Source: a virus
DNA length: 64,000 nt
IMG/VR virus record: IMGVR_UViG_3300019487_000001
Coordinates: 1-64,000 of that record
Reading direction: 5' to 3' (one strand)
A program made the translations under genes and the position numbers. The notes under the pieces were generated by a model. That model was given only the letters and a program-made list of their open reading frames with translations. It made no database searches and was not told the DNA's origin. Shown here one piece after another: positions 2,857-61,317 of the stretch. How positions within the stretch are numbered: position 1 is the first letter of the stretch; every line of letters starts with the position of its first letter.

Positions 2857-4662
2857 TTAATGAGACGACTTTTTATTTGTCTCTTTTGGTTTCAACTCAA
2901 TTGAACCTAAATCTTTTTCAATATCTTCAAGACTCATTGTAGCTCCTGAGTCTGTCTTGATAATTTGCTTACCCAAACCGGCTTCAGCTGCCGCTGAGCT
3001 AGAAGCATATACGAACCTACCTCGTGCAGAAGTTCTGAGCTCCTGAACTTTTTCACCCATAACCTTATAGAGAGGCTTTGTTTCCGCGATAGCATTCTCT
3101 AAATGCTGCTGTGTAAGTTCTTTCGCTCCTCCTGCAAAGGCTGCCACAAGCGCTGCCTTAACACACTTCTCGATCTCTGCACCGGTATAATACTGAGACC
3201 TCAGAGTTAATTTGTCAAGATCATATTTCTTAGGATCACGACCAGGGTGACCTTCTCTAGGCTTAGAGATATGGATTCTCCATATTTCATGTCGTTCCCC
3301 TTCTGTGGGAATATCCATGAAGAATGTTTCCGAGAACCTACGAATAAACTCCGGAGGTAACAACGAGAAATCATTAGCTGTTGCAATAACCGGAACTTCG
3401 GTTTGCTTTTCCTGCATCCAGGTTAAAAGGGTACCAAAGACTCTGGCCAAGGTACCTGAGTCTGATTGGTGGGAAGACTTAACGCCACCCACGGCTTTCT
3501 CGACTTCATCAATCCAGAGGATTGCAGGGCTCATGGCTTCGGCTGACTGGATGGCTCGTCTCATACCTTCTTCGGATCCACCAACGAGGCCAGTCATGAC
3601 CTTACCAATGTCCAGACGCAGAAGCGGCAACTTCCAGAGGCTAGCTAGCGCCTTAGCAAAAAGCGATTTACCGACACCTGGAACACCGGTAAGCAGGAAG
3701 CCAGTTGGAGCTTCAACACCAAACTTCTTAGCTTCATCACTGAACGCCTTAGAATATCTAAGGAAATAATCCTTGGCGATATCCATACCGCCAATGTCTT
3801 CGAGTTTGACACCAGCCTGAACACACTCGAGGATCGCAGTCTTTTTAACGAGCTGTTCTTTCTCTTTACGAATGTAGTCAGGGAGCACCCGGGTATTACG
3901 TATGAATGATGTTGCCAAGGCGTTATTCAGTTCCGGTACGGTCAACCCTTGAGCTGCGCGAGTGATCTCGTAGATCTCGTCTTCAGTGTAAAGAGTGTTG
4001 ATCTTAGAGAACGCTGAATCCTTGCCTTCTTCTTCAATCTTTTCTCGGATACTACAGGCAATGATCTCTGTTTGTTCCAACGTGATCTGTCTTAGGGTCG
4101 CACGATCCGGAAGATTATAATGTACGAGAACGATATCTTTTTCCAGTTCTTCCGGTAGCCCAGCGCCCTTGGCACCAATCGTTGGTGCAGTAATGATGAT
4201 GGTCTTAAGTGAGTTACAAAGATCATCGATCATATCCCTAATCTGTCGGACAACGGGCGGGACAAAGAGCTGATGGAAGTCCTGCAGAATGAAGGCAACA
4301 CCATTCTGATTCTTTTCTTTAGCAGCACGGACCGCCTTAATAGCGTTCAGAGCCTTGTCGGGTCTCGCGGTACCAGCCATCGGGTCATCCCCGCTATCAG
4401 GAACGCGGACTGCCTTCTTGCGGTTCTCGAAGGTCATAAGACCGAGGTTACTGGTCCAGCAAAAGACACCATAGGAAACACCTGGGTCGTCGGCTACACT
4501 AGACTTAAACTCGTTAATGAACCGGGTCTCTTCGTGGGTTACCACGTAAATGATAGGAGTACGGGCTTTAACCAGTGCTCGAATTTCTTCCATCGATTTA
4601 GACATATGCGCGGTTGGTAATACTGGAGCTGTCTGTTCTTTAACCTCGGACTTGCTGGCCAT
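2857..4662 (-). CDS. AAA+ ATPase (Ycf46-like architecture)
   Basis: Walker A GVPGVGKS, Walker B ILWIDEVEK, C-terminal AAA lid. Long N-terminal domain, 601 aa. Confidence 0.85.
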   Translation of the reverse strand: MASKSEVKEQTAPVLPTAHMSKSMEEIRALVKARTPIIYVVTHEETRFINEFKSSVADDPGVSYGVFCWTSNLGLMTFENRKKAVRVPDSGDDPMAGTARPDKALNAIKAVRAAKEKNQNGVAFILQDFHQLFVPPVVRQIRDMIDDLCNSLKTIIITAPTIGAKGAGLPEELEKDIVLVHYNLPDRATLRQITLEQTEIIACSIREKIEEEGKDSAFSKINTLYTEDEIYEITRAAQGLTVPELNNALATSFIRNTRVLPDYIRKEKEQLVKKTAILECVQAGVKLEDIGGMDIAKDYFLRYSKAFSDEAKKFGVEAPTGFLLTGVPGVGKSLFAKALASLWKLPLLRLDIGKVMTGLVGGSEEGMRRAIQSAEAMSPAILWIDEVEKAVGGVKSSHQSDSGTLARVFGTLLTWMQEKQTEVPVIATANDFSLLPPEFIRRFSETFFMDIPTEGERHEIWRIHISKPREGHPGRDPKKYDLDKLTLRSQYYTGAEIEKCVKAALVAAFAGGAKELTQQHLENAIAETKPLYKVMGEKVQELRTSARGRFVYASSSAAAEAGLGKQIIKTDSGATMSLEDIEKDLGSIELKPKETNKKSSH

Positions 4663-13027: not shown

Positions 13028-13474
13028 CTATCGCAATACTGATCTCACCCTCATTAATATGTGTCCTAACATATTTTTGCCACTACCATCGCCATTGTCG
13101 CCCCAGTAAGAATCGTTCCTGGTGTGCTCGATTAGGAATGCGTCGCCAGTTGAAAGAAGTTGTAATTGAAGTTCTGGGTGTTGCATAAACTTAGCTAAAA
13201 CAGCTCGGTACATAATACCATTCTTTACTTCTTCCCAATCCTGGCGTAAACCTCTCGTGGGGTCACGTCCCATTTGTGCCGCCATTTTCGGAGAGTTAAC
13301 GGCACGAATCAATTCCTTATAACTCTCATCCTTGAACTTTTGTGCCTGAAAGTAGTGCTCGCTGGTTGGCCAAACAACACCGTCTATTGTAACTGGATAA
13401 GAAGCAAAGTTAGAAAAGCATCCGAAAGGGTCTTTAACTCGATAGAATTTTATGCTTTTCATATAATACCACAC
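13028..13474 (-). CDS. NADAR (YbiA/DUF1768) family ADP-ribose-processing enzyme
   Basis: FYRVKDPFGCFSNF, WPTSEHYFQAQKF and NDSYWGDNGDGSGKNMLG match the NADAR signature. GTG at 13474 abuts the upstream stop; an alternative ATG lies at 13462. Confidence 0.8.
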   Translation of the reverse strand: MWYYMKSIKFYRVKDPFGCFSNFASYPVTIDGVVWPTSEHYFQAQKFKDESYKELIRAVNSPKMAAQMGRDPTRGLRQDWEEVKNGIMYRAVLAKFMQHPELQLQLLSTGDAFLIEHTRNDSYWGDNGDGSGKNMLGHILMRVRSVLR

Positions 13475-14578
13475 TCAAGCCGGTAAAACCAGTTCGTCAA
13501 TGACGGGTGTTCCGTGCCATAGTCTTAGCTGGCCGTGCCATACTGCACCGGGTTCATCTTTTTTTCGCATCAATATATAATTCAACTGACGCCTCGTGCC
13601 AATACTCTCCGTATATAAGGATACTATACTACACCACGTACCGGAGTTAAAGTATTCACCCAGGTCCGGGATCCTCTTATAGCCAGCCTTATGGTTATGC
13701 GCCAGAACTACCAGGCCCTCGCTCTTGGCCTCTATAGCCTCACTCATCTCACGGAGAATCATTTCGGCCCTACCCTCGAGGGTGGACTGTCCTACGCTCT
13801 TTCTGAGAATGGAGTACGTCGGACGAAACTTTGACTTGACCGACATGTTCTTATTGAAGAGAGCGTTGTAGATTACAAACCATGAGATCTTTAAGCCTAG
13901 ACCGGTAAGCCAGATGGGCTTAGAGAAGAGAGTTCGGAAGATCCAGGCAGGTATAGGGCGAACGACATCTAAGTAGGGACAGTCTTGTTTGACGGGATTT
14001 AATAGGTGAGTGATCCAGTAGTATCCCCATGGTGCATCTATAATCTGGGCTGCATTTTCTTCATCCACATGCCAGAGCGATTCACCCTGTTGCCCGTGTT
14101 CTATGTGAAAGTTATCTCCGATGTAGCGAAACTTGTTATACTCAGTATACCGTTCAGGATCTATCTCCAGGAGCTTGGTAAAGAAATACCTATGTGCTTC
14201 TGCGAGAGCGAGACCCATGTCATGGTTGCCCACGATGTAACGGAACTTATGCTTTGGATTCTTAAGCCACTTAGCGATAAACTTGAAAAGTCCCAAGTGG
14301 CCACGATATACTTTGTCGAGCTGGGCAATGACGAAGGCTGCCTCGAGCTTATCAGGGAAGCCACCATCGACTGGGACCTGGAGTAGATCTAGGAAGTCAC
14401 CGTTAGCTACAAACTCAACCTCATCAGCACCAATCTTATCGGCATCATATGTAGTTAGGAGTTCGACGAGTTTGCCGTCTCGAGTGAAGTTCTCTAGAGA
14501 ATTGAGTTGGCCATTCTCGAGATAGACACCCTCCCCGATGTGGGTGTCAGAGATAACAACCTTAAAGCTTTCTCCCAT
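13475..14578 (-). CDS. calcineurin-like metallophosphoesterase
   Basis: Motifs ISDTHIG (DxH), ANGDFLD (GD), GNHDMG (GNHD), and later EHGQ and AHNH histidines. Start overlaps the RT stop by 17 nt. Confidence 0.8.
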   Translation of the reverse strand: MGESFKVVISDTHIGEGVYLENGQLNSLENFTRDGKLVELLTTYDADKIGADEVEFVANGDFLDLLQVPVDGGFPDKLEAAFVIAQLDKVYRGHLGLFKFIAKWLKNPKHKFRYIVGNHDMGLALAEAHRYFFTKLLEIDPERYTEYNKFRYIGDNFHIEHGQQGESLWHVDEENAAQIIDAPWGYYWITHLLNPVKQDCPYLDVVRPIPAWIFRTLFSKPIWLTGLGLKISWFVIYNALFNKNMSVKSKFRPTYSILRKSVGQSTLEGRAEMILREMSEAIEAKSEGLVVLAHNHKAGYKRIPDLGEYFNSGTWCSIVSLYTESIGTRRQLNYILMRKKDEPGAVWHGQLRLWHGTPVIDELVLPA

Positions 14579-15551
14579 AGTCTTTATCCACCAAAGAGTT
14601 ATAGCTCTTAATCAATTTAACATACTGAGCCATATTTATATGTCGAACCCAAGACAACTTCCCTAGGATATGCTCATCGAGATGCTTCCTATCTTTGGCG
14701 AAGTGAAACAGCTGGCCCTCTATGTGCTCACAATACCTCTTAGTGAGAGCGAGAGTCCCATCATTATAGACTATAAACTTATTGGAAATCAGTAAACGAT
14801 TCTCATTACGGACAACAAGCTGAGACTTTTTATAATTAAGTTGCATGTAACCTAGAGTGTTCAGGATCTCTTCGACATGCTCCAGGATGTTTACAAAGAA
14901 TTCTTTGGCATGGATTCTATCTCCACGACCAGAGAAAAGGATGTCATCTGCGTACCGTGTATATGAATTACTTTTGATCGAGCTTAGTGGACCGGTCCTA
15001 TTCATCATTAGGGCTTGGCCTAGGTGTTGCATCGCCGTATCAAAGCTTTTTAATACAAGGTTAGACAAGAGCGGTGAACTGGGGGCGCCTTGCGGTAAGC
15101 CGCCTTCAAAGGTACACAGCTCTGCTATGTCACGCAGGAATTTATTGTGGTATCCAGGCGAACGCGGAATGCGGCGGTCGACTTCTTCTTTCAAGTTAAC
15201 TCTGAGTGCCTCTGTTATCAATAGAGGATGACAGGAGGGAAAGAAGTCCTTGATATCAAGGGCTACAACAAAGTCCGCTTTAGCATGGGCTTGGAGATGA
15301 GATTTAAGACCACGCCCGGGAATATAGGCACAGGCACCAGGTGGATACTCAATATATCTACCATTTAGATTGGTAACTATGAACTCTTGAAGTTCACGTA
15401 GAGCTCCCAGCGGTTCACAGATCATGCGCTTCTTGCCATTGGGCTTGGGAATATATCGTATATGATACATCCCACGCTTGTTTGCTATGATATCGGGTAT
15501 GGCAAAGCCCATCGAGTTAGAAAACTCGTAAAACTTAGAGGCATAAAGCAT
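14562..15551 (-). CDS. reverse transcriptase, stand-alone retron/Abi-like
   Basis: RT motifs IPKPNGKKRMICEP, LDIKDFFPS, LPQGAPSSPLLSN, YTRYADDILFSG (YADD codons 14943-14954). 329 aa with no fused domain. Confidence 0.9.
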   Translation of the reverse strand: MLYASKFYEFSNSMGFAIPDIIANKRGMYHIRYIPKPNGKKRMICEPLGALRELQEFIVTNLNGRYIEYPPGACAYIPGRGLKSHLQAHAKADFVVALDIKDFFPSCHPLLITEALRVNLKEEVDRRIPRSPGYHNKFLRDIAELCTFEGGLPQGAPSSPLLSNLVLKSFDTAMQHLGQALMMNRTGPLSSIKSNSYTRYADDILFSGRGDRIHAKEFFVNILEHVEEILNTLGYMQLNYKKSQLVVRNENRLLISNKFIVYNDGTLALTKRYCEHIEGQLFHFAKDRKHLDEHILGKLSWVRHINMAQYVKLIKSYNSLVDKDYGRKL

Positions 15552-15569
15552 CCAGGAGATCCCTTATAA

Positions 15570-15815
15570 TTACTTAGCGGGTCGAGGGGAAGGCTTCTGA
15601 GAGCGCTGAACGTTCTTGGCTTGGGGCTTTGTGTTACCATTAACGGTGGCCTCAACCAATTCGAATTCAACTTCCTCGTTCATCTTCAGAGTCTTGAACT
15701 CATTCTCTTCACTTTGAATCTCGGCGAAGTGGACAAAAATATCAGCTTCCACTCCCTCAGCTAGAATAAATCCAAAACCCTTCTTCGCATCAAACCATTT
15801 AACTTTACCCTTCAT
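15570..15815 (-). CDS. cold-shock domain protein (CspA family)
   Basis: [16 protein letters not shown] (RNP1-like) and DIFVHF (RNP2-like). Ends 18 nt upstream of the RT start. Confidence 0.9.
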
Positions 15816-15868
15816 AAAAATTAAACTCTCCTTTAATTCTTCCTCCCCGATCTGAAGTTCCCCTCTAG

Positions 15869-16198
15869 TTAGAAGGGCTCTTTGCCAAACTCGGCTGCTG
15901 CGGAAGTAGTCTTTTTGGCCACCGGGGCCGGAGAGGATCCCTGCTCTTTCCAGGCCGCGAAGCTCTGGATCACACGATCGTTGATATTAGCGAGCAAGTC
16001 TTTGTCAGTGACGAACACCTGGTTGTACCACTTGGTATCCTTGCCCTGGCTCCGTGGGAACGAGAGGAAAGGACCGTTGGTACCGTCATTGACGGTGCAA
16101 TGGACTTCTAACACATCATTAAAGGTAACAGTAACACCTGCGAGAATCTTGCCTGCGGTAACAGAACGAAACTTAAGATTAGTAACTTCGATCGACAT
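15869..16198 (-). CDS. spoVG: SpoVG-family nucleic-acid-binding protein
   Basis: [43 protein letters not shown] parallels B. subtilis SpoVG [40 protein letters not shown]. Confidence 0.7.
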
Positions 16199-27871: not shown

Positions 27872-27947
27872 AGGTTTTGTAATTCTCAAGGCAACGCCTT
27901 GAGAATTACAAAACCTCGATACGTGGATACCCGTTGGTTACCAACGG
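27872..27947 (-). terminator. tandem hairpins downstream of ORF 27956..28375 (putative terminator/processing site)
   Basis: Perfect 20-bp stem 27872-27891/27895-27914 with a 3-nt loop, and an 8-bp stem 27929-27947. No clear U-tract follows. Confidence 0.4.
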
Positions 27948-27955
27948 GATCGACT

Positions 27956-30408: not shown

Positions 30409-31764
30409 TTAAGTCTTTTTATACCGTCCTCGTATAAACCCTCTAAAATAATCTATTTGATTGTTCTTAGGATCTTCAAGAGCGAGCCCTAGGCAATCAC
30501 TAAGAATCTTCTTAAATTTAGGACCAGGCTTAAATCCCATCTTAACAAGATCTTCGCCGGAGATAGCAAGATCCTTGACTGTCATTGGCACCGAAGTTTT
30601 CTCAAATTGAATGAGTTTACGAAGCAAGCACTTCATTGGCCATGTTATGGCAGGCTTACCTTCTTTAGCTCGGTTGCCTTTGCGATCAGCCATGCGCAGC
30701 CTTAACAAGTCTCTAGTGTGGGGTGCCACAGTTACGGCCCATCGTTTTATAGTTGAGTCTTTCGTGTCTTCGGCAAAGCGCCACATGTGGTGGCGAACTA
30801 GCAAGACAACCTGAGCAGTCCAATCACCGGGAAACTTTAACCGAGTCATAATAGCGTCGGCCTTGTTAGCTCCGACGACTTCGTGTTTGTGAAAACTCGC
30901 GTAACCCCTGACAACTCTTTTAGTGTCAGGTTTGCCTATATCGTGAAAAAGCGCAGCAAACCGGAGGATTGTTCTTTTCGGTGAAACCGCGTCAACAACT
31001 TTAAGTATGTGTGTGTAAACATCGTCTTTGTGGTACTTGTTTTGCTCAACGCCGTGACACTGCTGGAGTTCAGGGATGATGAACGGCAAAAGACCCGTGT
31101 TACGCATGGCGTTAAAAGCTTTGGACGGGAGAGGATACTTCATGGCCTTAACGAGCTCGCCCTGGATCCTCTCGGCAGAGAGCCCATCAATATCCCAGGC
31201 ATTCTCTTTGATAGCTCTAAAGAGATCCTGGGAGATAATCATCCCGGTGCCATAGGCAGCAAACCTACAGGCTCTCAGCATACGGAGCCGGTCTTCTCTT
31301 AAACGCTCTTCTGGATCGCCTACAGCCCTCAGGCTGCGTTGCTTGAGATCAGCTTGACCTCCGAACGGGTCTATGAGGTTTCCGTTCAAATCTAGGGCCA
31401 TAGCGTTAATAGTGAAGTCACGCCTGGCTAGGTCGGTTTCAAGATCGCTAGTGAATTCCACCTCTGCGTGACGCCCGTCACAACTAACATCCTTACGGAA
31501 CGTAGTGATTTGACACGAGAATTTGGACGGCTCATGGAAAACAGAGATGGTTCCATGCTTAATGCCTAGAGGAATTACCTTATAGGTACCCTCAAACAAT
31601 GTGGTGAGAAGCTCCGGTGTCGCTGGAGTAGAGAGGTCCCAATCCATGGGTACCTGCCCCGCGACCAAGTCGCGGACTGCGCCTCCTACGATGTAGGATT
31701 TCACACCACGCTTATCAAGAAAGACCATGAGGTCTTTCAATACAGTCGGAACTTTTTCGAGCAT
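30409..31764 (-). CDS. cca: CCA-adding tRNA nucleotidyltransferase with HD domain
   Basis: GGAVRDLVAG, DWDLST, ARRDFTINAMA, HD motif LFHDIGKP. Confidence 0.9.
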   Translation of the reverse strand: MLEKVPTVLKDLMVFLDKRGVKSYIVGGAVRDLVAGQVPMDWDLSTPATPELLTTLFEGTYKVIPLGIKHGTISVFHEPSKFSCQITTFRKDVSCDGRHAEVEFTSDLETDLARRDFTINAMALDLNGNLIDPFGGQADLKQRSLRAVGDPEERLREDRLRMLRACRFAAYGTGMIISQDLFRAIKENAWDIDGLSAERIQGELVKAMKYPLPSKAFNAMRNTGLLPFIIPELQQCHGVEQNKYHKDDVYTHILKVVDAVSPKRTILRFAALFHDIGKPDTKRVVRGYASFHKHEVVGANKADAIMTRLKFPGDWTAQVVLLVRHHMWRFAEDTKDSTIKRWAVTVAPHTRDLLRLRMADRKGNRAKEGKPAITWPMKCLLRKLIQFEKTSVPMTVKDLAISGEDLVKMGFKPGPKFKKILSDCLGLALEDPKNNQIDYFRGFIRGRYKKT

Positions 31765-35157: not shown

Positions 35158-35658
35158 TTATAGGCTGAACCTGTAAAATATAATAGACTCTGTACCTGCC
35201 CAGGTGCCATAACGAGAAACAAGCTCGCTAGAGCATTGTGGGCTTAACTTATTTGCTAGCACATAGAAGTGCAGGTATTCATGTACCAGGGTTTTAAACT
35301 GTGATCTTAACACGTTCTCGTGTCCCGGACCCCAGCTCCAACCGTCTTTAACATAGATACGATTACCTACTTCGTCATAGCAACCGTTAATAGGGTCTAC
35401 GTTGAGCTCATCGCTCTCTTCGACTTTACAAGCCTCAACTAGAGTTTTGGTGGGAAGATACTCCACAATGGGTGGCATAAGATTATAGTTGACGTTACAA
35501 CGCGATTTCCACGGCTCTTTGCCAAGAGCACGGTGAATTACATGCTTTGCTGTTTCACGTGCCTGGAACTCTTTATCAGCCATATTGGCTAGCTGAGTTC
35601 TTACACTTACGCAACTTAAGGTTGCGCATAGAAACATTATTGCGCATAGTTTTTTCAT
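35158..35658 (-). CDS. lipoprotein with HExxH motif (paralog B)
   Basis: Start taken at MKKLCAIMFLCATLSC. Contains LVHEYLHFYVL. Confidence 0.55.
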   Translation of the reverse strand: MKKLCAIMFLCATLSCVSVRTQLANMADKEFQARETAKHVIHRALGKEPWKSRCNVNYNLMPPIVEYLPTKTLVEACKVEESDELNVDPINGCYDEVGNRIYVKDGWSWGPGHENVLRSQFKTLVHEYLHFYVLANKLSPQCSSELVSRYGTWAGTESIIFYRFSL

Positions 35659-37520
35659 AAGATTTTTCCCGTCAATAGATAACTTTTCAAGGCATAGACG
35701 CAAATATCATTTGCCTTGGCCTTATCAGCCTCCCAAGGAAGCTTCGTTCGAGCAACTGCCACATCAGCAGCCTCGAATAATTTCTTAGCCTCATCTTTCA
35801 CTTTTTCAAGTGACCACTTGCCCTGCTTGATCTCTAAGAGTTCAGACGCATCGTTACGCCAGACGTTTAAGACACCGGTTTCTAAGAATTCGATACCCAT
35901 TCTTAGCAAGCGTATGCAGTGTGCCGCGTTCTTGCAATTTCCATGTATTGATACCTTACCGTCTTGTCTGGTAATTAACGTCCCTGTCGGGACCTCGAAG
36001 CACACAACCCTCTGATTCTTGACTTTTCTTTTAATAACGTTAAAACCTTCTCTTTTTCCGCTACGATATGAGGGTTTTTTGTTGTAGCTTCTTATTTTCT
36101 TAAAGTTAATACAGCTGATTGGTTGATCGTTTTTAGATCTATATATTTGATACGTAGTGAGTTTTTTGCCGGTAAAACTAGATGGGCTACTATATGGCCC
36201 ATTGGCCGCAACCGGTATTCCTGCAAGGATCATCACAGACTGTATATCGTCGATTAAATTCTTATTAGTACTATAATATACAAAATGACCTTTTTTATTT
36301 TTTGATCCATCTCCCGATAGAAGGGCTTTCCACAATATTTCTACTTGTCGCGTAGAAAGATTAAAAGCCCATTTAGGTAATCTTTTATTTTTTGATCCAT
36401 GCCCACAATCCTTGTAGATTTGATGCGCAATTGGACCATGCAATATATAGACGGTTTCTTTTTTATATTGGTATTGTTTGATTGGGTAATTGAGCTTATT
36501 GATAATATCCCTAAAATCACCCATTTTTACTTGTGATAATCTAATAGCCTTGCATTTTTTAATGTTGGTTTTTCTGCTACGATAAAATTGTGCAGTGCCT
36601 TCAGAAAGAAAAAGCCCCATCAATGATAGATAATCATCCGATACGCCTTCGAGTTCTTTAGGTCGCTCATTGGGACATCTGCGTATATGATAATGCGATC
36701 TTCTTTGATTTAATATCTCATCAACAGATTTTAATTCCCATTCATTATTAGGAATATATTTATGAGAATAATTGTTCTTAGGATTTCTATGAGCAGTAGA
36801 AACTAAAAGATTATGGTTATGCGTAACGGTGCATTTAGATAAATTGCCTCTTATTGTATACAAATAACCAGAATATTTTTTATCGATTTTGTCGATATAC
36901 TTGCAAAAAATTAAATCACCAGTTTTAATATCCACCGTTGCCAAAGAATCATTTGCATGAATATCGTCAAACTTCTTCCATCCGGAATCTGTTAAAAATT
37001 CTGTATCTTTCAAATAACAATCATAGCCGAACTGCTTCACCAGCTTCTTTCGCTTATCACCCATGTAGCCCTCAAAGGCTAGGTGAGTCATTTTGTGCAT
37101 CTGAGCGTAAGCATAGCCAGTGAATGAGTGATAGAGGGCTTGACTCGAGAATATATCACGATTCTCGATCAGAGCCCGACCAGTAGGAGTGATCTTCTTA
37201 TAAAGCTCCGGCTTTAACCAGAGCATACCAATGACGTTGGGATTGCTCTTGATCAGAAGAGACATGAACTTACGAAGCTCATGGAACTCGTAGTCCCATT
37301 GCTCATGCTGTATATGCTTAGACTTCTCAGCTTCTTTTTCGCTGTGACCGTGGATGCCAATATACTTGGACTCAGGAGCTAGGTAGACTCCCATCATATC
37401 CACATCGTCAATAGAGGTAGGATCCGTAGGCGGAACATACATACCGTGGGCATGTGAGCCACGATAAGCGTATAGGATACACCGATCCAGGTAATCCTGG
37501 ATCTGGGTTTCGATATTCAC
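35655..37520 (-). CDS. RlaP-like (pol-beta superfamily) nucleotidyltransferase interrupted by an intein
   Basis: The N-extein has YRGSHAHGMY..DDVDMMGVY, a GS/DxD nucleotidyltransferase core. The C-extein of 93 aa resumes at CKNAAHCIRLL. Confidence 0.7.
   Translation of the reverse strand: MNIETQIQDYLDRCILYAYRGSHAHGMYVPPTDPTSIDDVDMMGVYLAPESKYIGIHGHSEKEAEKSKHIQHEQWDYEFHELRKFMSLLIKSNPNVIGMLWLKPELYKKITPTGRALIENRDIFSSQALYHSFTGYAYAQMHKMTHLAFEGYMGDKRKKLVKQFGYDCYLKDTEFLTDSGWKKFDDIHANDSLATVDIKTGDLIFCKYIDKIDKKYSGYLYTIRGNLSKCTVTHNHNLLVSTAHRNPKNNYSHKYIPNNEWELKSVDEILNQRRSHYHIRRCPNERPKELEGVSDDYLSLMGLFLSEGTAQFYRSRKTNIKKCKAIRLSQVKMGDFRDIINKLNYPIKQYQYKKETVYILHGPIAHQIYKDCGHGSKNKRLPKWAFNLSTRQVEILWKALLSGDGSKNKKGHFVYYSTNKNLIDDIQSVMILAGIPVAANGPYSSPSSFTGKKLTTYQIYRSKNDQPISCINFKKIRSYNKKPSYRSGKREGFNVIKRKVKNQRVVCFEVPTGTLITRQDGKVSIHGNCKNAAHCIRLLRMGIEFLETGVLNVWRNDASELLEIKQGKWSLEKVKDEAKKLFEAADVAVARTKLPWEADKAKANDICVYALKSYLLTGKIL
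35937..37019 (-). mobile_element. intein with LAGLIDADG homing-endonuclease domain (361 aa)
   Basis: Begins with Cys (CYLKDTEFLTDSGW, block A). LAGLIDADG motifs YLSLMGLFLSEGTA and ILWKALLSGDGSK. Ends ..VSIHGN followed by a +1 Cys. The insert is markedly AT-rich versus the flanks. Confidence 0.75.
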
Positions 37521-54177: not shown

Positions 54178-55173
54178 TTACTTGGCTTGCGCCTTGACTC
54201 GGCGCCAAGCGTCCCAAACTCGGTCTTTATCCGAAGGTTTGAGAGACTGCGTGGCTTGATATAAATCCTTGCCATTAATTTTATTGGCACGAATCTTTTC
54301 AATCAAGCCATACGCAGGATCCTGGCTCTTGCGTAGCGAAGCGAAGCCTTTCCAGGTCGCCCAGATGATATTCTGTTCATCTTTGGTGAAGGGCGACACT
54401 GAGCCCTTAGGATTCACCTTGAGGTGAATCATTTTGCCAAGGAAGTGGATTTGTTTATCAGAGCGAATCTGATTGAGCAAATCCAAGCAGGCTTGCGAGT
54501 ATACTCGCTTCTTGGCATTGGCTATTTTGTTATCTAGATACTTAGCCTGAGACGGTGGCTCACGCCAGTTGTCACGGTTGGTATCCACGTCGGGCAACCA
54601 GGCGTCAGAGCCACGCTCGTTGCTGTGGACTTCGGCAAAAGATTCTATTACGGGATGCTCCCCGGAATAGAACTCTTGGCCACAGAAGTCAACGATCTGG
54701 TCGTGGACCAGGCCACGAGCGACGTTGCGTACGGCTCTACGAGGACCGATAGTAACGTTGATTTTACGGGCTGTTTCCAAGGCCTCGGCTTCATCGAGTT
54801 TGCCTTGTGCCTGTAAGGCAGCCACGCCCTCAGGCGTGGCGTTCATGGTGAACTTGAACGTTCTCGCATCAGTTTCTTCAGCGAGTTCGTAGAACGACTC
54901 GAGTTCACCGAGCATGTCTTCCTGGCTAAGGCCAGGCTGCTCAAGCAGGCTATTAAACCAGCGGTTAGCAAGTTTAGTAGCACGCTCCATGGTCCACTGT
55001 TTAGGTTCTCTGCGGTTGACACGACTCATAGTCTTGTCAACGCTATCACAGGCTTCGTTATCAGCCTGTGCATCAGAGTCCGTATGGACGATGAAGCCAT
55101 GTCCATCGGCAGCGAAGTTGCCGTATAGAAATGATTCTTCTTGATCAGCGTTTTGGTTTTGGATAGTTTCCAT
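54178..55173 (-). CDS. hypothetical protein
   Basis: Start taken at METIQNQ (ATG 55173), 8 nt after AGGAGG. The track ORF extends to 55251. Confidence 0.6.
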   Translation of the reverse strand: METIQNQNADQEESFLYGNFAADGHGFIVHTDSDAQADNEACDSVDKTMSRVNRREPKQWTMERATKLANRWFNSLLEQPGLSQEDMLGELESFYELAEETDARTFKFTMNATPEGVAALQAQGKLDEAEALETARKINVTIGPRRAVRNVARGLVHDQIVDFCGQEFYSGEHPVIESFAEVHSNERGSDAWLPDVDTNRDNWREPPSQAKYLDNKIANAKKRVYSQACLDLLNQIRSDKQIHFLGKMIHLKVNPKGSVSPFTKDEQNIIWATWKGFASLRKSQDPAYGLIEKIRANKINGKDLYQATQSLKPSDKDRVWDAWRRVKAQAK

Positions 55174-56866: not shown

Positions 56867-56947
56867 GATACTTCTCCTTTATGAGTTAAGTTAATAACTC
56901 GGGTTTTAGGCGAGCCGCCCGGAACGGGCGGCGAGCCTCTATTGTTA

Positions 56948-57265
56948 CTAGAACAAATCTTCCTCATCTTCATCGAACTCTGCATCATCACCTGTCTCTG
57001 CAACAGGGGCAGGTGACTCGAGTTCAATAGTTGTGAAGAAATCGTCATCGTACTCACTATCTTCGTCTTCATCTTCAGGCTCCTGGTCAGGACCAGGAGG
57101 AAGTTCAGACAGATGTTGTTCGTACTCAGGAATCCGATATAACCCAGTTGTATCGGATTCAACGATCTCTCCTGCTTCGAGCATCATCTTGATGATGTCT
57201 TCGCGGGGATAGTTGGCCGACAGGCCACGTTCTTCAGCGAATGCCTTGATAAGTTCTTCAATCAT
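56948..57265 (-). CDS. strongly acidic hypothetical protein
   Basis: 105-aa ORF ending EFDEDEEDLF. Confidence 0.5.
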   Translation of the reverse strand: MIEELIKAFAEERGLSANYPREDIIKMMLEAGEIVESDTTGLYRIPEYEQHLSELPPGPDQEPEDEDEDSEYDDDFFTTIELESPAPVAETGDDAEFDEDEEDLF

Positions 57266-57417
57266 AATAACCTCCTAGTAAAAGTTAAATAAGTATTATT
57301 GACTTTAAGCCACACCTGGAAGCACGAAGTGCTGAACCTAGTGTAGCAAGTATCCACCCGCAGGGTGGGGAGGCGGAGGAAACTCCTCCGCCTCTGACTT
57401 CTCTTATTGTACCCGAC

Positions 57418-57690
57418 TTATCTGTTGACTCGTCGATTGTGTCTCTCAATCGACTTATGAACAGGAGTGAAGATCTTTAATCTGGTCTGTAGGACCATAT
57501 CCGAGACCTTGTAGTCATTGGCTTTGGCTATGAAGATCACGAGGCGATCTTCTGACAAAGCCATCATATCCGAGATGTGTAGCCCGACGTTCCGGAGGAA
57601 TGACTGGGCTTCTTGGATTTGGTCGGGGTGAATGATCTTATGAGCCACGACCGTGTACTGAGACTTCTTGTTTTGCATTAAATGAACCAT
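57418..57690 (-). CDS. hypothetical protein
   Basis: 90-aa ORF preceded by GGAGGA. Confidence 0.5.
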   Translation of the reverse strand: MVHLMQNKKSQYTVVAHKIIHPDQIQEAQSFLRNVGLHISDMMALSEDRLVIFIAKANDYKVSDMVLQTRLKIFTPVHKSIERHNRRVNR

Positions 57691-57699
57691 GGTTAGGTC

Positions 57700-58880
57700 C
57701 TCCTTGTTTTGCTACTCACGAAATTGTGAGGAGCGTTGTGAATAGATAGATACTAGAAACACAAGCGGTCAAAAGGGATGACAAATATGTGGCAGAGCTT
57801 GCTGGCGAAGGGGTCTTCTTGTATAGCGTAGCGAAACAAGAAGACAGCCGTGATCCGGCGGAGACACAGTATCCGCCGGAGCGAAGGCGGTCCCGAGCCA
57901 ATGCAAGTGAATGCCAAGCGGGGCTGCACCTCCTAGCGAAGCGTTGAGGTGCAGCCGAGAGCGCATATTTGGCATAGAGAGCGAGGAAATTCAAATGCGC
58001 AGCATTTAATTTCTGAGCGAATGACCTTTTGCTTAGCGCGTCACCTTGAGAACAACGCGACGAGCAGGTAGCAAAAGAAGTGAGGACTATCACATGGTCT
58101 AGGTAAACCAGCGACCACGTGAGTCTCAGCCATGGGACTTAAGAAATCCATGAGTCTTGCATTACAGGGATAATGCAAGACCGTAGGGCACGAGAGCCTG
58201 TAGGCGTCCCCGTAAGTCAGGCGCAGCCTAACTGAAGGCCCCGGAACAAAGTGCAGGGGTTGTGAGCGATGAGACAATCGCGAGCAAGGCGAGAGTAGCG
58301 CGTTAGCAGGGAGATCGACCGAGCCGTGTGTCAACCCCAGAGCAACGCAGTGGCGTTGGTTGGGGTCCAACGAATAGAAGGATCTATTCTTGCACACGGC
58401 GAATTGATCGACTTGCTAAAAGCGATACGATGCCCGGGTTTCTCAGTTAGAGCGAACGCAGTGAGCTTGTACCTAGTAGGTAGGGAGTGAGCGACAAATG
58501 GCGAGCGCCGCAAGGCCCGAGCCAGCCCGTTGCCGAAGGCAAAAGGGCCTTTAGTTTGTAGCCGAATGCACGGGTGGAGTGTTGACCAAGCAAGCGCACA
58601 CCATGGCGTAAACGCAGTGGCACGCGCAGCGACTCAACGACGGAACCGGTGCAGAGGCAGTGCTCACGAATAGGCCGCTTAGGACAAGCGACCGCAGTGA
58701 GAGCGCAGCGTAACGCTGCGGGAGTAGGACAGTTTGGTATTAGTGTCTATAAGCGAGGCTGGAAGAGCAAGCGGAGCGGCTCGTTCCAGCCAGCGCAGAC
58801 CCTGAATGTAAGCAAAGAGTCTTAGGGCTTGGGTGAGTAACAAAGCGCAGCTTTGTACGAACCTCAAGCCAGGTCGGCGA
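57700..58880. other. hairpin-dense, GC/purine-skewed non-coding block A
   Basis: Perfect stems at 57813-57845 (10 bp), 57854-57880 (9), 57922-57956 (11), 58154-58181 (11), 58334-58366 (6+5), 58372-58389 (7), 58530-58542, 58704-58720 (7), 58757-58791 (8+4), 58841-58855. The plus strand is T-poor. The only ORFs are Ser/Arg/Ala/Cys-rich artefacts. Confidence 0.6.
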
Positions 58881-58883
58881 GGA

Positions 58884-59153
58884 CTATTGTCCTCTCCTCC
58901 GTTGTAACTCTCTGGCTATAGCCAAACAGATAGCGATGTTATCAGTACACTCAGGTGAGTCACTATGGTCTTTGACCAAGGTACCAAGACCATCAACAAG
59001 GCGTCTAAAGAGCGCCTTGGTAGGGAACAGTGACGCAGCGAGTCCGAATACATCAAGTCCACCCACCACCCCAGCCGGGGCGGGCGTGGACTGGCCATCC
59101 ATATCCGAATCTTCAAACACACTAGTAGATATAACAGTAGTATTCTCTTTCAT
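58884..59153 (-). CDS. hypothetical protein
   Basis: Start taken at MKENTTV (ATG 59153). Ordinary composition, unlike the flanking blocks. Confidence 0.45.
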   Translation of the reverse strand: MKENTTVISTSVFEDSDMDGQSTPAPAGVVGGLDVFGLAASLFPTKALFRRLVDGLGTLVKDHSDSPECTDNIAICLAIARELQRRRGQ

Positions 59154-59305
59154 AAGTATAGTAACTCCATAGTAAGAGAGGATACTCAAGTACCCTCAGG
59201 TTTTAGAACCCAATGTCACCCTATGTGACACTAGGTTTATAAAGAAAATACATTAATTTTGACTGAAATCGAGTCAGAAGAGTACGCATAGCGTACGTTC
59301 ATAAG

Positions 59306-59345
59306 AAAAACCCAATGTAACCATGGTGTTACAAGGGTTTTTCTT
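59306..59345. terminator. bidirectional intrinsic terminator
   Basis: aaaaaccc-aa-tgtaac-catggt-gttaca-a-gggttttt. A-run on one side and T-run on the other. Confidence 0.55.
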
Positions 59346-59349
59346 TAGT

Positions 59350-60100
59350 AGTACTGGTGTCAACGAGACACATACACCTGGTCCGCCAACTTCTAAGCCC
59401 CCGGTTTAGACCCTACACCTACCTCAACGGACAATTCCATTGTCTCTATGTGGGTAGGGGTATAAGAGGGTCTAACAAACCACCCCACGCGGCGGGGCAG
59501 GGTAACGAGGTAGCACAGGGGGGTATGTTTCACATGGCAATCTGTAGATGACATGTGAAAGGTGAAACGAATCGTGGAGAGCGAAGCTCGAACGAGTCGT
59601 GAACCCCAGCGCAGCCGAAGGCAAGCGCAGCATACAGCACCCCCGCAGGGGGTGTATCCCCTAAGTGCGTACATAACCCAGTACGCCGCAGGGACTAGAA
59701 GGGCGAAGGCATGGTTTTGCCTGGCAAAACTAATGCCTGAGCCCAGGTAAGGTACTACGTGGAACGTAGTACATGGAGAGCATGAACGTAGTGAATGCAT
59801 ATAGTGAGCCCAGAGGGCGAACAAGGCGAAGGCATGACTTTTGCGTAAGCAAAAGGCATGACTGAGCCCATGTAGCACTCGTAGGGTGCGGAATGATGAG
59901 GCGAGCGCCGTAGGCGCGAGCCATAGAGATGAGCCCATAGGGCGAATCAATGTATATAGAGCTGCAACAGTACCACTAGAGCGAGGGAACGTAGTGACCG
60001 AGCGTATGCTACGCTATGTACTACATCCCCTCGCTTCAAGTACTATGCAGCGAGCCCCGAAGGGGCGAGCGGGGGTGGTGTTGTGTACTACATACACACC
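59350..60100. other. hairpin-dense non-coding block B
   Basis: Stems at 59531-59557, 59579-59589, 59638-59654 (7 bp), 59667-59686, 59752-59772 (9), 59838-59855 (7, GTAA loop), 59905-59917, 59980-60035 (8+5+6 nested), 60054-60066. TGAGCCCA occurs at 59738, 59805, 59863 and 59930. Confidence 0.6.
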
Positions 60101-60261
60101 TACTCACCCTTGGATAGCAGTATACACATCTCTATCTTATCCTTCTCTTCAAGAAGGTCCATCATCATGCCTACATGAGATGGTGATAGAGGTGTAACAG
60201 CTGTACGTAACACATCTAATTGACTAATGATATCAGTATAGTGATCTTGCAATGTAAACAT
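60100..60261 (-). CDS. 53-aa hypothetical peptide, first ORF of the leftward arm
   Basis: The ATG at 60261 follows AGGAG. Reads MFTLQDHYTDIISQLDVLRTAV.. Confidence 0.4.
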   Translation of the reverse strand: MFTLQDHYTDIISQLDVLRTAVTPLSPSHVGMMMDLLEEKDKIEMCILLSKGE

Positions 60262-60760
60262 AACAATCTCCTAAGTAATGCACTACACCTACCTAGATAC
60301 ACCATGTACCTAGGCGGCGGAGTGCTTGTTAAATATCAAATAACTCAAATAAAAAGATGAATATACCTATCCATCTCGTAGTATAGACCCGGGGGCTTAC
60401 ACGGTAAAACCCTAGGTCTTACTACTCAATCTCACCCTCCAGGAGGTTGTACATGTTTTTCCCCCTCCCTAGGCTTTTTCCCGTATCACCAGTTTCTGCC
60501 CGGAACGCGGGGGGAGGTGATAGCTTTTATATTTTTTCCCCCATTTACAACTCCATATGGAACTTTTCTTCTTCTCCCTTATAGCTGAGTAACTCAGTGG
60601 GTTTTTAAGCTCATCAAGGCAGGGGGCGGGCGTACCCCTAATTCTTCCCTATTAACCTGCCAGAGAGGCGTATAGAAAGCCACAGAGGGTTTTAATGGGT
60701 GTGTAGAGGGGGCGCGTAAATATCTCTTCTAGGATTGTTAATAGGGAGGAAATATTTGTC

Positions 60761-60790
60761 TTGACAAGAAATACCATAGTTAACTAAAAT
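60761..60790 (+). promoter_or_regulatory. sigma70-like promoter
   Basis: TTGACA-18 nt-TAAAAT. No ORF for about 550 nt downstream. Confidence 0.4.
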
Positions 60791-61288
60791 CTCTCTTAGG
60801 AAGTTACACCGAGTTCTTAGGAACTGACAGTCTTTATATTGAGTCTTATAAGAGAATACCGGGATCTTATTCTTTAGCTAGAGTGTAGATCTAGGATAAT
60901 AACCACTAGGGTTTTCATGTAAGTTTTTTATTCCCTCCGCCCTTTGCTAAATTGTTTCCTATGTATAAGTGTTCTTTTTTAGGGTGATTATCTCATATAA
61001 ACTAATCTAAGTGCTCTTTTTAGAGCTTTTATGTGGAGGGACTTTCAACCCATCCCCCGGCCTTTGGTTCGGAAGACTCAGTGAAACTCTGTCTTGGGTG
61101 CAAAGACGTCCAGTGAGTTAAGGTACAATATACTGGACCTTAGCTAGCTTATTGTCCAATATATGATACCTTAAAGCTTCGGGGTTTAGTGTTTACAGTT
61201 CACAGTTAACTGTAAACTTTGGTGTAAACTTTTGCCGTTAAGTGGCTTATTGGAAAGAGTATTTTCCTTTACATGGCGACAAAGGGTC

Positions 61289-61317
61289 TTGTGTTTTTGT
61301 AGGGTGTGTTCTATAAT
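61289..61317 (+). promoter_or_regulatory. sigma70-like promoter of the rightward operon
   Basis: TTGTGT-17 nt-TATAAT, 25 nt upstream of the AGGAGG-ATG at 61342. Confidence 0.5.

Follow-up and report, generated by a model that had tools for sequence, protein, structure and literature searches.

The region considered here lies in a 64,000-nt stretch of viral DNA (positions 1 to 64,000 of IMG/VR record IMGVR_UViG_3300019487_000001, hereafter the window), which belongs to a 194,511-bp metagenomic contig (ENA ERZ27251177 k141_1470228); approximately 74 kb of the 194.5-kb contig was covered by the analysis. The contig is assigned to a phage because a gene for the terminase large subunit is located about 10 kb rightward of the element under study, a structured non-coding unit designated Block B. 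Genes are directed leftward starting from position 60261 and rightward starting from approximately 61300. Read from right to left, Block B comprises a sigma-70-like site, a leader, the Shine-Dalgarno sequence AGGAG, a small open reading frame (ORF) of 53 aa, 754 nt of non-coding sequence, and a bidirectional terminator, as anticipated in the preliminary description, where a discrete unit of a small leftward ORF, about 750 nt without coding potential, and a strong terminator was proposed. A sister array, Block A, is located further left, and no other region of the window combines GC richness (0.52-0.62) with purine richness (0.57-0.64) on the plus strand. The main new and unexpected point is that the structural motifs of these arrays are polarised to the plus strand, which is antisense to the leftward mRNA and represents its template strand.

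The coding part of the unit is short. The 53-aa ORF matched no family, and its homologue P0007 (84% amino acid identity) lies on the only relative found, a 589-nt ENA contig (L044). Over 44 codons the two genes differ by 8 synonymous and 8 non-synonymous codon changes, and because of this the ORF is taken to be a real but fast-evolving gene. The leader shows hardly any change in the alignment with L044 and is better conserved than the ORF; it holds a hairpin (60292-60314) and the 12-mer CTACACCTACCT (60283-60294), a second exact copy of which occurs at 59413-59424. In the promoter candidate the -10 element and the spacer are kept in L044, and the -35 element is not. The terminator arms AAGAAAAACCC/GGGTTTTTCTT enclose the inner arms TGTAAC/GTTACA, a pairing that also shows up in a chance miRNA alignment of the Rfam search at E<=10. 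Furthermore, the unit is bracketed by an 11-nt inverted repeat, which occurs exactly and at these two sites only in the window; its arms pair in both the minimum-energy and the centroid structure of the 1-kb minus sense RNA, and the right arm is kept in L044.

One gene call lies inside the array. The public assembly places an ORF of 181 or 185 codons at 59393..59938/59950 on the minus strand; however, the 181-aa protein had no homologue among 1.84 billion representative proteins, and its composition differs from that of the phage's proteins. The pyrimidine-rich minus strand of the array is poor in stop codons. This gene call is almost certainly an artefact, and there is no credible coding potential in 59346-60099.

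The minimum-energy fold of the Block B array contains 17 terminal hairpins, so that the hairpin array described previously stands, while its count of nine clear hairpins does not; the nested structure noted at 59980-60035 is present as part of a longer hairpin, H9. All the repeated words of the preliminary description were recovered. The 8-mer TGAGCCCA is found in four exact copies on the plus strand (59738, 59805, 59863, and 59930) and nowhere else in the 64 kb; a 12-mer word (GGCGAAGGCATG...) and the 17-mer TGAGCCCANAGGGCGAA occur twice each, with copies 123-125 nt apart; and GAACGTAGTGA occurs at 59784 and 59987, with an additional copy in a coding region at 31498. What had to be revised is their meaning. 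The recurring 8-mer and AGGGCGAA had been read as marks of repeat units, and they are actually arms of two hairpin types, TGAGCCCA forming the 3' arm of the alpha hairpin and the 5' arm of the delta hairpin and AGGGCGAA the 3' arm of delta, all with G·A mismatches.

These arms belong to a single duplication of about 125 nt (77% identity; spacings 125, 125, and 123), each copy of which is a cassette of four hairpins named alpha, beta, gamma, and delta. The alpha hairpin has the form GGC-GA-AGGCAUG...CUGAGCC, the gamma hairpin is GGC GA GCGCC GUA GGCGC GA GCC or GCAU GA AC GUA GU GA AUGC, and the delta hairpin is U GA GCCC ANA GGGC GA A. Between the two copies alpha and delta are kept in sequence, and beta and gamma have diverged with their folding retained. 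Thus the modularity of the array holds, whereas the tandem unit of about 60 nt does not: Tandem Repeats Finder reported no repeats in Block B, and in place of related 60-nt units there are at least 17 different hairpins, including one duplicated four-hairpin cassette. A tandem repeat or CRISPR-like array was rejected as well, head-to-tail unit copies being absent.

The one-strand polarity is seen at several levels. Compared with dinucleotide shuffles, the array folded as RNA gives z = -11.9 on the plus strand and -7.7 on the minus strand, and folded as DNA -16.9 and -9.1, a plus strand advantage that is inflated by the reward which energy models give to G·A mismatches. In Block A the plus fold is better than the minus fold by 45 kcal/mol. 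Mini-hairpins of the type X-C-GNA-G-X' number 24 on the plus strand and 2 on the minus strand in the 1,947 nt of both blocks (13 and 0 for the C-GNA-G mini-hairpins of Block A), compared with a mean of 1-2 per block and maxima of 6-7 in mononucleotide shuffles, and with about 1 per kb, balanced between the strands, in the remaining window. The exact heptamer GCGNAGC occurs 11 times on the plus strand and once on the minus strand of the blocks, compared with 11 and 12 elsewhere in the window and with a mean of 1.6 and a maximum of 7 in 1000 dinucleotide shuffles; the GCGNAGC class of DNA mini-hairpin is therefore enriched on one strand. The triloops are nearly all GNA on the plus strand and closed by C-G. 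In the Block B helices that are common to both strands all four 2x2 internal loops are GA/GA on the plus strand and the four 1x1 mismatches are without exception G·A or A·G, the tandem GA mismatches occupying a pyrimidine-GA-purine context that favours sheared pairs. Hairpins of the design GA-stem-triloop-stem-GA with GC-rich stems cluster at 59577, 59806, 59903, 59931, and 60052. The coordinates of the parts are collected in Table 1.

Table 1. Features of Block B, of the sister array and its preceding gene, and of the reverse transcriptase operon (window coordinates)
Feature	Coordinates	Strand	Remarks
NADAR-family protein	13028..13474	-	operon 13028-16198
367-aa protein	13475..14578	-	operon 13028-16198
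Retron-type reverse transcriptase	14562..15551	-	operon 13028-16198
Cold-shock protein	15570..15815	-	operon 13028-16198
SpoVG-like protein	15869..16198	-	operon 13028-16198
Block A, sister array	57691..58883	+	composition and motifs like those of Block B; downstream of the 89-aa ORF
Orphan 89-aa ORF preceding Block A	58884..59153	-	no homologue found
Bidirectional intrinsic terminator	59303..59345	both	11-nt perfect arms, T-runs on either strand
Non-coding hairpin array	59346..60099	+	GC 0.55, purine-rich on plus; 17 terminal hairpins
Inverted repeat, left arm (11 nt)	59394..59404	.	TAAGCCCCCGG on plus; pairs with 60389-60399
Other hairpins	59407..59695	+	59407-59474, 59529-59559, 59561-59605 (with GCGAAGC), 59609-59628, 59637-59655
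Cassette copy 1	59699..59823	+	alpha1 59701-59744, beta1 59752-59772, gamma1/mini 59780-59798, delta1 59804-59822
Cassette copy 2	59822..59948	+	alpha2 59825-59868, beta2 59869-59895, gamma2 59900-59922, delta2 59929-59947
H9, long nested hairpin	59961..60051	+	contains GAACGTAGTGA; includes the 59980-60035 structure
H10, GA GCCCC GAA GGGGC GA	60052..60068	+	compensatory change C-G to G-C in L044
53-aa ORF	60100..60261	-	after Shine-Dalgarno AGGAG (CTCCT on plus, 60268-60272); homologue P0007
5' leader	60262..60379	-	two almost invariant segments in the alignment with L044
Sigma-70-like promoter candidate of the leftward unit	60380..60408	-	TTTACC-17-TATACT; score 9/12, weak, inferred
Inverted repeat, right arm (perfect, 11 nt)	60389..60399	.	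CCGGGGGCTTA on plus; brackets the unit

Comparison with L044 indicates that the folding has been maintained while the array was rearranged. The first 267 nt of its block contain the same module types in other order and number, a point that the preliminary description had named for checking. Compensatory changes were found in H10 (GCCCC/GGGGC to GCGCC/GGCGC, C-G to G-C), in the alpha2 stem (UUUUGC/GCAAAA to CCUUGC/GCAAGG, UU/AA to CC/GG), and in gamma (GCGCC/GGCGC to GCUAC/GUAGC); H9 is kept with its apical stem replaced, and loops of the GNA and GA/GA types persist also where the hairpins are not orthologous. For 80 base pairs counted on the alignment, pairing is retained in 91% of cells, and in 11 pairs both sides have changed, compared with 0-3 in slid controls and 5.5±1.6 in shuffled ones, where none of 500 reached 11. 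The cells paired amount to 51/64 in plus sense (5 G·U) and 47/64 in minus sense (1 G·U). Covariation from two sequences is suggestive, and taken together the comparison clearly points to hairpins under selection.

An alternative explanation is that the blocks are selfish or neutral repetitive DNA, either palindromes similar to repetitive extragenic palindromes/bacterial interspersed mosaic elements (REP/BIME) or to miniature inverted-repeat transposable elements (MITE), or locally duplicated hairpins. The local ~125-nt duplication, the difference of module order and number between the window and L044, and the inverted repeat around the unit would be expected in this case. However, the hairpins share motifs and not sequence, without further copies in the 64 kb; they keep one polarity throughout, unlike BIME/REPIN; compensatory changes keep their stems; and the leader is nearly invariant. 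This explanation is accordingly considered very improbable. As specific candidates REP/BIME and MITE were rejected, no dispersed copies being present in the window, the polarity being single, and no target-site duplication flanking the inverted repeat at 59394 and 60399.

The expression signals lead to another reading. The preliminary description raised the processing of the leftward transcript into small structured RNAs, which does not appear to be the best-fitting reading because the GNA triloops and tandem G·A lie on the opposite strand. In a broader form the minus sense RNA as a whole may be functional, as a long structured 3' untranslated region or tail of the first leftward transcript. 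Its roles could be 3'-exonuclease protection, RNase III-type processing into hairpin RNAs of about 60 nt, or that of a protein sponge, for which the phage cold-shock protein (Csp) or SpoVG, or a host RNase or chaperone, would recognise C(UNC)G loops and UC/UC internal loops. The promoter-like site, leader, Shine-Dalgarno sequence, ORF (under mild purifying selection), and terminator bracket the array exactly, and no internal hairpin is followed by a U-tract, because of which transcription should continue to 59303. In this RNA the ends pair via the 11-nt inverted repeat, and the minus strand fold still has a z value well below that of the shuffles. On the other hand, the 24:2 and 11:1 polarity and the exclusive GA/GA loops would then mirror, by mere coincidence, some unknown recognition code of UNC and UC/UC, the folds of both blocks are weaker than in plus sense, and the L044 comparison gives fewer G·U pairs in minus sense. 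The minus sense RNA is therefore regarded as an unlikely, although not negligible, explanation.

If the plus strand folds as RNA, it would be transcribed independently, as a large structured non-coding RNA of about 0.75-1.25 kb (1.2-1.6 kb for Block A), antisense to the small early ORFs and broadly similar in kind to the large ornate RNAs of phages. The purine and GC richness of this strand resembles that of structured RNAs, its RNA fold has the best z value of the two strands, tandem G·A on GC stems is typical of ribozymes, with delta corresponding to stem II of the hammerhead, and terminator-like sites on the plus strand follow Block A (59303-59345) and Block B (60584-60608). Nevertheless, no plus strand promoter-like site is found upstream, the left neighbour of Block B being a terminator and that of Block A a coding ORF; Rfam at E<=10 returned a chance-level match only; there is a single GNRA tetraloop (GUAA), which is GUAU in L044; GNA triloops are much weaker in RNA than in DNA (PMC13037366); and such an RNA would be wholly complementary to the minus sense transcript. 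This possibility is rated slightly below the previous one and is likewise unlikely.

No known RNA family accounts for the blocks. At the gathering threshold Rfam gave no match in the 64 kb, and at E<=10 the best match in 57200-60800 was Clostridiales-1 with 20.9 bits against a threshold of 48 (E = 0.2, chance level). GOLLD, ROOL, group I/II introns, msr, riboswitches, and small RNAs were rejected, none of their covariance models scoring near gathering. The blocks resemble GOLLD and ROOL and the CsrB-type sponge RNAs in being long, structured, non-coding, and phage-borne with serial hairpins, and differ from them in lacking a covariance-model match, in loops of Block B that are not GGA-type, and in motifs that lie antisense to the evident transcript. 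RNase III sites of the T7 early region and stabiliser hairpins between the cistrons of T4 are internal-loop hairpins located between or behind early genes of a polycistronic transcript; those sites are single between genes, whereas in Block B 17 hairpins follow in a row after the 53-aa ORF with polarity to the other strand. Block B is a real and conserved element without family assignment.

One match to an RNA motif is that of the delta hairpin, UGA-GCCC-ARA-GGGC-GAA, which is identical over 17 nt to stem II of type III hammerhead ribozymes together with the flanking G·A pairs. However, Block B is not a hammerhead because the window has neither the CUGANGA core nor stems I and III nor the cleavage site; the delta hairpins are preceded by AUAGUGA and GAGAUGA and followed by GAAC and GAAU, and no hammerhead match was obtained at E<=10. 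The 17-mer TGAGCCCANAGGGCGAA did retrieve type III hammerheads from unrelated IMG/VR phage contigs. In such contigs (L003, L005-L011, and L014-L018) a compact putative type III hammerhead-like ribozyme was observed, with the parts UCCGUC/CACCGG..CCGGUG/CUGAUGA/GCCC-ARA-GGGC/GAAACGGA, located immediately downstream of a terminator-like hairpin, with a Shine-Dalgarno sequence and start codon following about 10-20 nt further on. One of them, L006 3387-3438, has a stem II as in delta and scores 37 bits for RF00008, so that standard Rfam annotation, with a gathering threshold of 48.5, would miss hammerheads of this type.

In Blocks A and B autonomous stem-loops of a few module types thus form arrays that have been maintained in evolution. 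The reading preferred here, although tentatively, is that the functional molecule is the folded strand of plus polarity, most likely as single-stranded DNA. The strand selected for folding would be the plus strand, the template of the leftward early mRNA, and the module would be a GC-rich stem with a C-G closed GNA triloop, often stacked on tandem sheared G·A. Single-stranded DNA is favoured because mini-hairpins of this chemistry are far less stable as RNA than as DNA: the melting temperature is 76.5 °C for d(GCGNAGC) and 39 °C for r(GCGAAAGC) (PMC13037366). The d(GCGNAGC) hairpins are resistant to nucleases and poorly bound by single-stranded-DNA-binding protein (SSB), and examples are known from the G4 origin, ssiA, and the N4 early promoter (PMC13037366). 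An array of such compact hairpins would thus withstand SSB melting and nucleases once the plus strand is exposed, which may happen by supercoil-driven extrusion, during replication, or through reverse transcription of the unit's transcript. Its role could be that of a platform or decoy for proteins binding single-stranded DNA or hairpins, or that of a priming or initiation signal.

Two known systems provide the nearest precedents for folded DNA. The mini-hairpins of the G4 origin and RSF1010 ssiA, d(GCGNAGC)/d(GCGNNAGC), have the same core with C-G closed GNA triloop, sheared G·A, and GC stems, and they too are strand-specific, resistant to SSB and nucleases, and present in phage DNA (PMC13037366). 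They differ in being limited to 1-3 hairpins at the origin of single-stranded replicons, whereas here about 24 motifs form arrays of 0.75 and 1.2 kb in early units of a ~195-kb double-stranded phage. In the N4 early promoters it is the template strand that carries the hairpin, and of the two strands' hairpins SSB melts the complementary one alone (PMC4496689). Hairpins of the N4 type, with a stem of 5-7 bp and a 3-nt purine-centred GNA loop on the template strand, were found at 59579-59589, 59905-59917, 60054-66, and 56914-56932, upstream of leftward genes and in the right orientation; in both cases only the purine-loop strand would be SSB-stable (PMC4496689), and comparable hairpins, each standing alone, lie ahead of early genes at 56914-56932 and 57321-57394. 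Unlike here, N4 has no arrays but three promoters, whose -17 to +1 sequence is conserved, and the flanks of the hairpins found here have no common sequence. The genome architecture is not N4-like, sigma-70-like promoters are present, and no N4-like polymerase was found among the ORFs scanned, which were part of those of the window, in the approximately 74 of 194.5 kb covered.

Besides the inflated fold energies mentioned above, several points weigh against a functional plus strand DNA. Recognisable expression signals (promoter-like site, leader, Shine-Dalgarno sequence, ORF, and terminator) are found on the minus strand only, and because of this the minus sense RNA is the one certain product if the unit is expressed. 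Also, the tandem G·A is a classic RNA motif and delta is equal to hammerhead stem II, owing to which RNA keeps a share of the likelihood. At the ends of the shared helices G·U and A·C are symmetric between the strands and uninformative (6 and 6 in Block B, 9 and 11 in Block A), and the H9 helix is more continuous in minus sense, where two A·C become G·U. The structure used for pair counting was derived from the plus strand fold of the window, and the comparative evidence comes from one 589-nt relative that covers about one-third of Block B. Finally, the DNA nature of the functional molecule and the single-stranded state of the plus strand are both inferred.

One route from the leftward transcript to a plus strand DNA is suggested by a retron-type reverse transcriptase of the same phage, encoded in the operon listed in Table 1. 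It matched PADLOC RT_III-A (3.4e-45) and NCBIfam retron_St85_RT (7.8e-44; 150 bits, which is below the 235-bit cut-off), and its best PDB matches are all retron reverse transcriptases, which places it in the retron clade; the YADD motif is present, and NAxxH and VTG were not seen on reading the sequence. No structured non-coding RNA adjoins the gene, the neighbouring gaps being coding with z of -0.7 and -0.9, and a diversity-generating retroelement was rejected, as no template/variable repeat is present near it.

According to this idea Blocks A and B would be giant retron-like templates reverse-transcribed in trans by the orphan enzyme, which is considered improbable. The leftward transcript, closed by the 11-nt inverted repeat that resembles a1/a2 and has G as the base right after its 5' arm, would template reverse transcription; retron-style priming at the repeat would give cDNA of the plus strand from 59405 rightward, the strand with the stable DNA motifs. 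The products would be plus strand single-stranded DNAs of 0.7-1.2 kb with about 10-13 nuclease- and SSB-resistant mini-hairpins each, and host proteins which detect or modify single-stranded DNA could be countered by such virus-made multi-hairpin DNA, acting as a decoy or platform. This reading reconciles the expression signals on the minus strand with the stability motifs on the plus strand, and the likeness to retron msr-msd includes transcript ends paired via an inverted repeat, the G after the 5' arm, a stable fold that would lie in the complementary DNA, and a retron-type reverse transcriptase in the same genome. The differences are that the enzyme is 44 kb away from Block B, that the would-be template is 5-10x any natural msd and has an ORF inside, and that no Rfam msr family matches. 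In addition, the promoter candidate would leave the 5' arm outside the transcript, and Block A is without a convincing flanking repeat (10 nt only, at chance level, with no G after it).

Comparable single hairpins were observed elsewhere. In short gaps of the leftward early genes there are GC-rich hairpins at 56914-56932, 57321-57333, 57354-57368, and 57370-57394, three with GNA triloops on the plus strand (GAA, GAA, and GCA) and the fourth with AAC; they are not canonical terminators because none has a following U-tract in mRNA sense. One of them, GGC GA GCCGCCCG GAA CGGGCGGC GA GCC, shares the gamma/H10 design. The left end of Block A (57703-57715) pairs with 58068-58080, which would mask the Shine-Dalgarno sequence of the next gene. 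In IMG/VR the pattern GCGAGC-N3-GNA-N3-GCGAGC had at least 120 matches; complementary stems were present in 6 of 91 parsed matches, with about 1.4 expected. Two of these six come from related IMG/VR phage contigs, L062 (827-847) and L100 (5039-5059), in which the hairpin GCGAGC-N3-GAA-N3'-GCGAGC lies between leftward small early genes diverging from a terminase-portal module, and here too it is the template strand that carries the GNA loop; its stems covary between the two (CCC/GGG and GCG/CGC), and the L062 hairpin matches H10 over 21 nt. These are single hairpins and not arrays, and they are a lead only.

With respect to relatives the phage appears isolated, having no DNA or protein relatives in INPHARED, IMG/VR, JGI metagenomes, or GTDB. 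In INPHARED (blastn, tblastn) the AAA ATPase alone gave matches, at about 30% identity; IMG/VR gave none by protein and by DNA patterns only chance matches in GC-rich coding DNA; and JGI metagenomes and GTDB genomes gave none. A neighbouring 331-aa protein has relatives at 82% and 64%, found only on contigs of 1.2 and 2.8 kb.

The surrounding genome has some further features. It encodes an SSB, a faint DprA-like gene, the reverse transcriptase, the cold-shock protein, and the NADAR protein, a context that counts in favour of the preferred reading, and also a CCA-adding/poly(A) polymerase-family enzyme with an HD domain (30409-31764), RlaP, a nucleotidyltransferase of an RNA-repair pathway (35655-37520), and an AAA+ ATPase (2857-4662); nevertheless, ARAGORN found no tRNA or tmRNA genes in the window. 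To the right of Block B a 1-kb divergent non-coding region (60400-61300) carries TTTTTCCCCC twice, the plus strand terminator-like hairpin at 60584-60608, and a near-consensus rightward sigma-70 promoter (60761-60790, TTGACA-18-TAAAAT). The minimum of the cumulative GC skew is at about 56-57.4 kb, left of Block A and not at the switch of gene orientation. In a GC-regressed energy scan the strongest local structure outlier of the window was a perfect 21-bp hairpin with a 3-nt loop at 27872-27916 (residual z = -5.1), followed by a second, 8-bp hairpin at 27930-27948. Three overlapping GCGNAGC heptamers with 5-nt spacing occur at 54331-54347 within the 331-aa ORF, and 54376-54525 and 54601-54750 are among the most structured windows of the 64 kb after correction for GC content.

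To our knowledge, kilobase-scale arrays of GNA mini-hairpins on one strand in early units of a large phage have not been described previously. Mini-hairpins with GNA triloops are so far known as isolated signals, from N4 promoters and from some few origins of phages and plasmids. In the conservative reading the blocks represent a new conserved structured non-coding element of about 2 kb without a family, and a case where the polarity of motifs, beyond fold energy, bears on which strand is functional. If the phage reverse transcriptase makes the product, it would be the first virus-encoded long multi-hairpin product similar to multicopy single-stranded DNA. If the folded strand is DNA, the arrays would represent a new use of structured single-stranded DNA, early in infection, by a double-stranded DNA phage.

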